A stretch of DNA of 64,000 nt from Escherichia coli. Lineage in GTDB: Bacteria > Pseudomonadota > Gammaproteobacteria > Enterobacterales > Enterobacteriaceae. The notes below the pieces were generated by a model. It was not told the origin of the DNA, made no database searches, and saw only the letters and a program-made list of their open reading frames with translations. The first letter of the stretch is position 1, and each line of letters begins with the position of its first letter. A program made the position numbers and the translations under genes. This document shows positions 30,704 to 31,073 of the stretch, one piece after another. The stretch lies in assembly GCF_001677475.2 (NCBI RefSeq), contig NZ_CP015229.1; one strand, given 5' to 3'.

Positions 30704-30731
30704 TTGCATGAAAACGCGAGCGGAGTATAGT
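30704..30731 (+). promoter_or_regulatory. Putative sigma70 promoter of the tRNA-fMet operon
   Basis: TTGCAT -N16- TATAGT, 13 nt upstream of first tRNA 5' end. Confidence 0.6.
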
Positions 30732-30744
30732 GCGCATCCACGGA

Positions 30745-30821
30745 CGCGGGGTGGAGCAGCCTGGTAGCTCGTCGGGCTCATAACCCGAAGGTCGTCGGTT
30801 CAAATCCGGCCCCCGCAACCA
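30745..30821 (+). tRNA. metZ: Initiator tRNA-fMet (anticodon CAT), copy 1
   Basis: CGCGGGGTGGAGCAGCCTGGTAGCTCGTCGGGCTCATAACCCGAAGGTCGTCGGTTCAAATCCGGCCCCCGCAACCA; copy-to-gene-name assignment follows operon order and is less certain than the tRNA call. Confidence 0.95.
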
Positions 30822-30854
30822 ATTAAAATTTGATGAAGTAAAGCAGTACGGTGA

Positions 30855-30931
30855 CGCGGGGTGGAGCAGCCTGGTAGCTCGTCGGGCTCATAACCCGAAG
30901 GTCGTCGGTTCAAATCCGGCCCCCGCAACCA
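30855..30931 (+). tRNA. metW: Initiator tRNA-fMet (anticodon CAT), copy 2
   Basis: Identical 77-nt sequence; 33-nt spacer from copy 1. Confidence 0.95.
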
Positions 30932-30965
30932 ATCAAAATTTGATGAAGTAAAAGCAGTACGGTGA

Positions 30966-31042
30966 CGCGGGGTGGAGCAGCCTGGTAGCTCGTCGGGCTC
31001 ATAACCCGAAGGTCGTCGGTTCAAATCCGGCCCCCGCAACCA
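30966..31042 (+). tRNA. metV: Initiator tRNA-fMet (anticodon CAT), copy 3
   Basis: Identical 77-nt sequence; 34-nt spacer from copy 2. Confidence 0.95.
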
Positions 31043-31050
31043 ATTATTGA

Positions 31051-31073
31051 ACACCCTGACGGGTGTTTTTTTG
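31051..31073 (+). terminator. Rho-independent terminator of the tRNA-fMet operon
   Basis: acaccc-tgac-gggtgt followed by ttttttt. Confidence 0.8.

Follow-up and report, generated by a model that had tools for sequence, protein, structure and literature searches.

The stretch of DNA analysed here (the window, 64,000 nucleotides in length) carries, between positions 30704 and 31073, what its sequence identifies with a probability of about 97% as the metZ-metW-metV (metZWV) operon of an E. coli-type chromosome, intact and with three identical tRNA-fMet1 genes. metZWV in this window is a long-known operon in its commonest, three-copy form, and as such is already known. The array lies on the plus strand, opposite in orientation to both of its flanking genes, mltA and amiC, which are recognized by synteny and Pfam, and its three genes are the only tRNA calls made by ARAGORN in the whole 64-kb window. 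The features of the locus are as follows.

29439..30536, minus strand: mltA, the divergent upstream neighbour, with Pfam MltA and 3D domains, a start reading MKGRWVKYLL...LAAC and the K-12 length of 1098 nt.
30694..30701, plus strand: A-tract directly upstream of the -35 hexamer, UP element-like, read from the sequence; the A-run here is conserved across Enterobacterales.
30704..30709, plus strand: -35 hexamer TTGCAT, from the sequence and the cross-genus footprint.
30710..30725, plus strand: promoter spacer of 16 nt, fixed in length and variable in sequence (~0.98 bits per column).
30726..30731, plus strand: -10 hexamer TATAGT, from the sequence, the cross-genus footprint and published mutations.
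30732..30744, plus strand: GC-rich discriminator GCGCATCC and short 5′ leader, with GCGC conserved and a predicted start near 30738-30740.
30745..30821, plus strand: metZ, tRNA-fMet1 copy 1, from ARAGORN, Rfam RF00005 and identity elements.
30822..30854, plus strand: ITS1, the metZ-metW spacer (33 nt, ATTAAAATTTGATGAAGTAAAGCAGTACGGTGA), with the RybB seed complement AAAGCAGT at 30840-30847.
30855..30931, plus strand: metW, tRNA-fMet1 copy 2, from ARAGORN, Rfam RF00005 and identity elements.
30932..30965, plus strand: ITS2, the metW-metV spacer (34 nt, ATCAAAATTTGATGAAGTAAAAGCAGTACGGTGA), with the RybB seed complement AAAAGCAGT at 30950-30958 and the (ARN)4 run AGUAAAAGCAGU.
30966..31042, plus strand: metV, tRNA-fMet1 copy 3, from ARAGORN, Rfam RF00005 and identity elements.
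31049..31072, plus strand: intrinsic terminator with an 8-bp stem, a 4-nt loop and a T-run, from a terminator scan and folding.
31090..31115, strand not assigned: second hairpin, with an A-run on one side and a T-run on the other, right behind the amiC stop codon (minus-strand fold of -15.0 kcal/mol, z = -4.2).
31117..32370, minus strand: amiC, the convergent downstream neighbour, with Pfam Amidase_3 and AMIN domains and the K-12 length of 1254 nt.

Each of the three genes is called tRNA-Met(CAT) on the plus strand by ARAGORN, with the anticodon CAU in a canonical cloverleaf, and scores 61.4 bits against Rfam RF00005 (gathering score 29), and direct comparison finds the three 77-nt copies identical. 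Tandem Repeats Finder describes the array as a repeat with a period of 110 bp, 2.7 copies, 98% matches and a score of 590, and three identical 77-mers in register are far beyond what chance would produce. Since ARAGORN cannot separate initiator Met, elongator Met and lysidine-modified Ile2 tRNAs, the identity elements were read directly. All three genes place C1 opposite A72, creating the C1xA72 mismatch in an acceptor-stem pair (1-72) that Rfam cmscan flags as non-canonical, and the anticodon stem contains three consecutive G:C pairs (G29:C41, G30:C40, G31:C39). Every copy also has A11:U24 in the D stem, together with G2:C71, C3:G70 and A73, which are formylation determinants of initiator tRNA. 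A mismatch at the 1-72 pair is common to all iMet tRNAs (PMC8860583), and the three G:C pairs of the anticodon stem are described as an initiator tRNA feature (PMC3017606). All three copies have G at position 46, and G46 (m7G) marks tRNA-fMet1, the metZWV product, and A46 marks tRNA-fMet2 from metY (PMC3017606). The CCA end is present in the sequence of the tRNA genes and would thus be genome-encoded. The published northern probe for tRNA-fMet is perfectly complementary to the sequence in the window, and the published metZWV knockout primers match the leader and terminator of the window, one loop base apart (PMC3017606). As the tRNA sequence is identical to that of the experimentally studied E. 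coli tRNA-fMet1, the three genes are assigned to initiator tRNA-fMet, of the tRNA-fMet1 isoacceptor, with formylation and P-site use predicted by that identity. A preliminary description of the window had proposed three identical 77-nt initiator tRNA-fMet genes in tandem, separated by near-identical spacers of 33 and 34 nt that differ by one T/C substitution and one extra A. The genes are borne out by ARAGORN, Rfam, C1xA72, the G29-31:C39-41 pairs, A11:U24 and the probe match, and the spacers by the sequence itself.

The surroundings of the array are those of the K-12 operon. With a query of 1.4 kb, matches were obtained in 5,425 of the 5,426 complete E. coli genomes, with the annotation mltA, three tRNA-Met genes and amiC, and the K-12 annotation order tcdA-mltA-(tRNA-Met x3)-amiC-argA is the same context as that of the window. 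From ~8 kb to 56 kb (8052-55999), the window is collinear with strain GN06156 at a fairly uniform divergence of ~1.5%, sharing the gene order syd, queF ... fuc operon ... gcvA, csdAE, tcdA, mltA, metZWV, amiC, argA, recD, recB, ptrA, recC, and no structural oddities were found over the 8-56 kb compared with this close relative. The best identity of the window to any of the 5,426 complete genomes is 98.6% over 24 kb (20000-44000); the lineage of the window is not closely represented among them. The array core of 224 nt has an exact match in only 2 of these genomes. One strain with an identical core, E. coli 120899, carries an A-to-T change in the discriminator (GCGCTTCC), and this discriminator variant is common in other genera too.

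Two open reading frames on the minus strand cross the array, and both had been dismissed as antisense artefacts in the preliminary description, a judgement with which the domain content agrees. In the ORF at 29439..30818, the Pfam MltA and 3D domains are confined to the C-terminal 365 residues, where they lie in residues 212-448, and this ORF is the true mltA (29439-30536) preceded by a spurious 94-codon N-terminal extension. The second, at 30800..31102, returned no credible family match in a Pfam profile search. Several small RNA genes elsewhere in the window are recognized by Rfam, namely CsrB (7516-7875, minus strand; RF00018, 380 bits), GcvB (26054-26259, plus strand, adjoining gcvA; RF00022, 199 bits) and the tandem OmrA/OmrB genes (59463-59550 and 59666-59747, minus strand; RF00079, 96.6 and 86.1 bits). 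A match to ES036 (CssrF) at 29275-29317 on the minus strand (46.6 bits, gathering score 37.6) follows closely on the mltA stop, in the orientation of that gene, and may represent the mltA 3′ end or terminator region.

A consensus promoter scan, which needs a match at four of six positions of a hexamer, called no site for the metZ promoter, because TTGCAT matches TTGACA at only three of six. Phylogenetic footprinting was therefore used in its place. A pattern scan of species-representative genomes for junctions of tRNA-fMet, short spacer and tRNA-fMet retrieved 120 loci, mostly from Enterobacterales, and the footprint set drawn up for the promoter comprises 74 distinct 60-mers from the upstream regions, all sharing one register and coming from other Enterobacterales (about 40 genera). 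Of these 74 sequences, 60 have TTGCAT at the -35 and another 11 have TTGCAA (71/74 together). The -10 hexamer is TATAGT in 73 of the 74, a count to be read with the selection of the register on TATA, so that only the remaining columns are independent evidence. GCGC follows the -10 in all 74 sequences, and the leader motif ACGGA is ~99% conserved. The hexamer columns hold 1.84-1.98 bits, as against ~0.98 bits in the 16-nt spacer, and the promoter and leader are identical to those of K-12 from -45 to -1. Two promoter-down mutations are known for the operon, D4 just upstream of the Pribnow box and D27 within it, and both tRNA-fMet1 and reporter activity fall drastically when such mutations hit the -10 or its immediate flank (PMC3017606). 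The footprint, the identity to K-12 and the published mutations, from which its function is taken (PMC3017606), support TTGCAT-N16-TATAGT as the real and single promoter of the operon. Transcription would start near 30738-30740, ~5-7 nt upstream of metZ, as judged from the spacing, and the A-tract at 30694..30701 may act like an UP element. With its sub-optimal spacer of 16 bp, its GC-rich discriminator (GCGC) and the A-run ahead of the -35, the region has the architecture of a stringently controlled stable-RNA promoter, and metZWV is reported to be down-regulated by ppGpp (Nagase 1988, as cited in PMC3017606).

At the other end of the array, the terminator scan places a hairpin at 31049-31068 with a T-run behind it that reaches 31072. 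This terminator folds with -11.1 kcal/mol (z = -4.1) and differs from its K-12 counterpart by one loop base, G in the window and A in K-12. The preliminary description had thus been right to place a promoter ahead of the array, given the footprint, the identity to K-12 and the published mutations, and a terminator after it. The second hairpin (31090..31115) is probably the amiC terminator, and may serve the tRNA operon as well, as a bidirectional back-up. In this arrangement, the three genes would be transcribed as one precursor from the sigma-70 promoter with its GCGC discriminator, ending at 31049-31072. The predicted precursor is ~335 nt long from the promoter to the first terminator, or ~380 nt if transcription continues as far as the second hairpin, whereas the full-length metZWV precursor has been given as about 500 nt (PMC10710024). 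Separation of the tRNAs from the metZWV precursor is strongly dependent on RNase P (PMC2241853, PMC7049720, PMC5291269, PMC8860583). The fMet tRNAs are unaffected by the loss of 3′ exonucleases or poly(A) polymerase, and they “may be” matured in one step, through cleavage by RNase E behind the CCA (PMC2241853, PMC7049720, PMC8860583). In the window, RNase P would accordingly be expected to remove the short 5′ leader and to separate the tRNAs, with a single RNase E cut possibly making each 3′ end.

Tandem identical copies are substrates for unequal homologous recombination, by which whole units of 110-111 bp are gained or lost. The number of copies was counted across the 5,426 complete E. coli genomes with spacer-centred queries, using E-value cut-offs passed only by full-length junctions. 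At least two copies (at least one tRNA-spacer-tRNA junction) were found in 5,194 genomes, at least three (two consecutive junctions) in 4,999, and at least four (three consecutive junctions) in 67, or about 1.2%; about 26 have at least five, and about 41 exactly four. Exactly three copies are thus present in ~4,932 genomes (90.9%) and two in about 195 (3.6%), with about 232 (4.3%) in the class of one or none detected, which mixes true single-copy genomes with undetected cases. Many of the genomes in the census are clonally related, and part of the variation may be assembly error. Representative arrays that depart from three copies were inspected individually.

1 copy: STEC2018-607, no spacer.
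2 copies: SCU-308, spacer order sp1.
4 copies: WP4-W18-ESBL-09, spacer order sp1-sp2-sp2.
5 copies: AR_0137, spacer order sp1-sp2-sp1-sp2.

The inspected variants are exact, in-register gains or losses of whole units in which the tRNAs are always identical, just as would be expected if tRNA copies had undergone unequal homologous exchange. The census and these exact 1-, 2-, 4- and 5-copy variants support the earlier proposal that the array is prone to copy-number change by recombination, and they supply the comparison across strains that had been suggested alongside it, with one to at least five copies seen and three in ~91%. A similar polymorphism is reported for the glyV-Y array, which has 3 or 4 copies depending on the strain (PMC4539685). 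A candidate zero-copy strain, ST648, was rejected owing to an N gap in its assembly at the array; its “complete genome” record in RefSeq (NZ_CP008697.1) has N at the start of the array (4543-4546 of the retrieved locus), and no tRNA is annotated there. Two full-length tRNA-fMet/spacer/tRNA-fMet junctions lie on E. coli plasmid records, not on chromosomes. Arrays of 5-6 tandem tRNA-fMet genes also occur in Marinobacter nauticus and Ferrimonas balearica, with spacers of 22-35 nt and ~111-113 nt. Tandem amplification of initiator tRNA genes is widespread, also outside Enterobacterales.

Alternatives to an intact, three-copy initiator operon with the promoter described here concern the class of the tRNAs, the position of the promoter and the assembly. 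The CAU genes might be elongator tRNA-Met or tRNA-Ile2, in which C34 is converted to lysidine, and the ARAGORN label “tRNA-Met (cat)” is equally suited to all of these classes. The presence of C1xA72, the three G:C anticodon-stem pairs and A11:U24, the match of the published tRNA-fMet probe and the location at the annotated metZWV site nevertheless leave this reading with a negligible probability. It is also conceivable that TTGCAT-N16-TATAGT is a chance match and that the functional promoter lies further upstream, since the consensus scan makes no call at this site and a start roughly 150 nt further upstream would fit the reported ~500-nt precursor. Here, the near-invariance of the hexamers, the 16-nt spacing and GCGC across ~40 genera, in which the spacer sequence itself varies, and the drastic reduction of tRNA-fMet1 by published promoter-down mutations in or next to the -10 make a promoter elsewhere very improbable. 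A true copy number other than three, hidden by a collapsed or expanded repeat in the assembly, is given a similarly slim chance: three copies are the state of ~91% of the 5,426 complete genomes, and the two spacers can be told apart and stand in the canonical sp1-sp2 order, even though short-read assembly can go wrong on a period of 110 bp, one public record shows an N where the array should be and public assemblies range from 1 to 5 or more copies. The intact three-copy initiator operon, read from TTGCAT-N16-TATAGT, is retained in what follows.

In the literature, metV is a hotspot for the insertion of genomic islands at its 3′ end; the preliminary description was silent on this hotspot, as it was on the name metZWV and on the sRNA and Hfq roles of the spacers. 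In 1,964 of 5,425 genomes (~36%), synteny breaks off 2-3 nt past the CCA of the last tRNA gene. The inserted DNA is a T6SS island in LY180, and in ST648, WP4 and AR_0137 a sugar-metabolism island with genes for phosphoglycerate dehydrogenase, KpsF/GutQ, MalY and PTS components (EIIC). Each metV island brings its own hairpin terminator. No foreign block follows metV in the window, where the native terminator and amiC come directly after it, and positions 31043-31048, just after the metV CCA end, are the empty form of the island-insertion site.

Binding of sRNAs and of Hfq is reported for the spacers between the tRNA genes. By MAPS and reverse MAPS, RybB and MicF were recovered together with both metZWV internal transcribed spacers (PMC4583644; Lalaouna et al., 2015), and Hfq contacts the full-length precursor in the metW-metV spacer, at a weak site for its distal face (PMC10710024). 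In the window, ITS1 is identical to that of K-12, and ITS2 is 34 nt long versus 33 nt in K-12, with one extra A. An (ARN)4 run is found in ITS2, and ITS1 has only (ARN)2. With RybB and MicF sequences verified against Rfam, the duplex with the 16-nt RybB seed is calculated at -15.1 kcal/mol for ITS1 (z = -3.1) and at -15.8 kcal/mol for ITS2 (z = -3.2), values equalled by ~1% of dinucleotide shuffles, and over the RybB seed duplexes z ranges from -3.1 to -3.5. Pairing of MicF with the spacers was no better than in shuffled controls under a simple duplex model (z 0 to -0.6). In a set of 136 distinct spacers, 27 contain AAGCAGT, which is complementary to RybB nt 4-10, where shuffles give an expectation of 0.6. 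Of 48 genera, 12 have the motif, its position varying and the spacers being otherwise dissimilar, and 36 lack it, and other 7-mer motif families are equally widespread in the spacers. The RybB seed complement carried by both spacers and the additional (ARN)4 Hfq motif of ITS2 are consistent with the reported RybB/MicF and Hfq binding.

These data leave room for a plainer view in which the spacers are processing linkers only and play no regulatory part, their complementarity to RybB and their ARN motif being coincidental. Recovery of RybB and MicF with the spacers by both MAPS and reverse MAPS speaks against this view, as do the seed duplexes (z about -3.1 to -3.5) and the recurrence of AAGCAGT in 27 of 136 spacers, against 0.6 expected, in 12 genera whose spacers are dissimilar. 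The linker view, however, accords with the weakness of the reported Hfq binding to the metW-metV spacer, the failure of MicF pairing to exceed shuffles, the other 7-mer families that are as widespread as AAGCAGT and the 36 of 48 genera that do without the motif, and we place it only somewhat below even odds. It is tempting to go further and to regard the spacers as conserved regulatory modules, with the 1-to-5-copy polymorphism acting as a joint tuning knob for translation and envelope stress and not as neutral repeat instability, an idea we consider unlikely. If it were true, each 110-bp unit gained or lost would change initiator-tRNA dosage and RybB/Hfq-titrating capacity together.

A separate observation concerns some Citrobacter and Enterobacter arrays, in which two tRNA-fMet copies are separated by a gap of ~150-170 nt (11488-11638, 2783-2934 and 8422-8592 of three retrieved loci). 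Decayed tRNA copies were considered as the content of these gaps and rejected, as ARAGORN found nothing and local alignment to the tRNA was negligible. The gaps hold a conserved insert of ~115 nt with the core GTGAATCC..AGGAGCTTAC...AGTAAGTGACTG.GGTGA.CG, which is a candidate ERIC/IRU-like repeat.

The metZWV operon supplies the majority of cellular initiator tRNA (PMC3017606), and its deletion leads to cold sensitivity, growth defects and relaxed initiator selection, that is, lower initiation fidelity (PMC3017606, PMC11480407). The rate of growth, the tolerance of cold and the accuracy with which start sites are chosen are all affected by the dosage of metZWV (PMC3017606, PMC11480407; Samhita 2014, as cited in PMC9981150). 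The mildly new items in the present analysis are the copy-number census, the cross-genus promoter footprint and the recurrence of a RybB-complementary motif in the spacers of other genera. Census and footprint are modest by-products, which put numbers on something long assumed and add no new biology. For the annotation of the window, the gain consists of three real RNA genes, the removal of two false ORFs, a corrected mltA start and a marked empty metV site.

The promoter of metZWV invites comparison with the rrn P1-type stringent sigma-70 promoters, for which the features of rrnB P1 were used. A 16-bp spacer, a GCGC discriminator after the -10 and an upstream A-rich tract are common to both; the -35 of metZWV, however, is weak (3/6), and rrn-like control of the operon is a prediction from its sequence. 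Among sRNA sponges, the nearest known systems are 3′ETS-leuZ and ITS-metZWV, and ITS1 and ITS2 of the window are the same elements as those reported for the latter, with the RybB seed complement kept. A regulatory consequence has been shown for 3′ETS-leuZ, whereas for ITS-metZWV co-purification and weak Hfq binding are documented (PMC4583644, PMC10710024).

In its organization, the operon resembles glyVXY, valVW and leuQPV of E. coli, which likewise consist of head-to-tail identical tRNA genes under one promoter, and valVW and leuQPV share with metZWV the RNase P-dependent separation of the tRNAs. These three operons encode elongator tRNAs, however, and lack both the initiator identity elements and a link to initiation fidelity. 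Closer in product is metY of K-12, a single gene for tRNA-fMet2 upstream of nusA-infB, which has the same initiator sequence bar one base and the same function (PMC3017606). It differs from metZWV in having A46 instead of G46, in being present in a single copy within another operon and in its regulation by cAMP-CAP and ArgR (PMC3017606), and it is absent from the window. Closest of all is metZWV of K-12 itself (63.5 min, tRNA-fMet1). Relative to it, the window has one additional A in ITS2, a G for A in the terminator loop and a few different flanking bases, whereas the position between mltA and amiC, the 77-nt genes, the promoter and leader, ITS1 and the terminator stem are identical.
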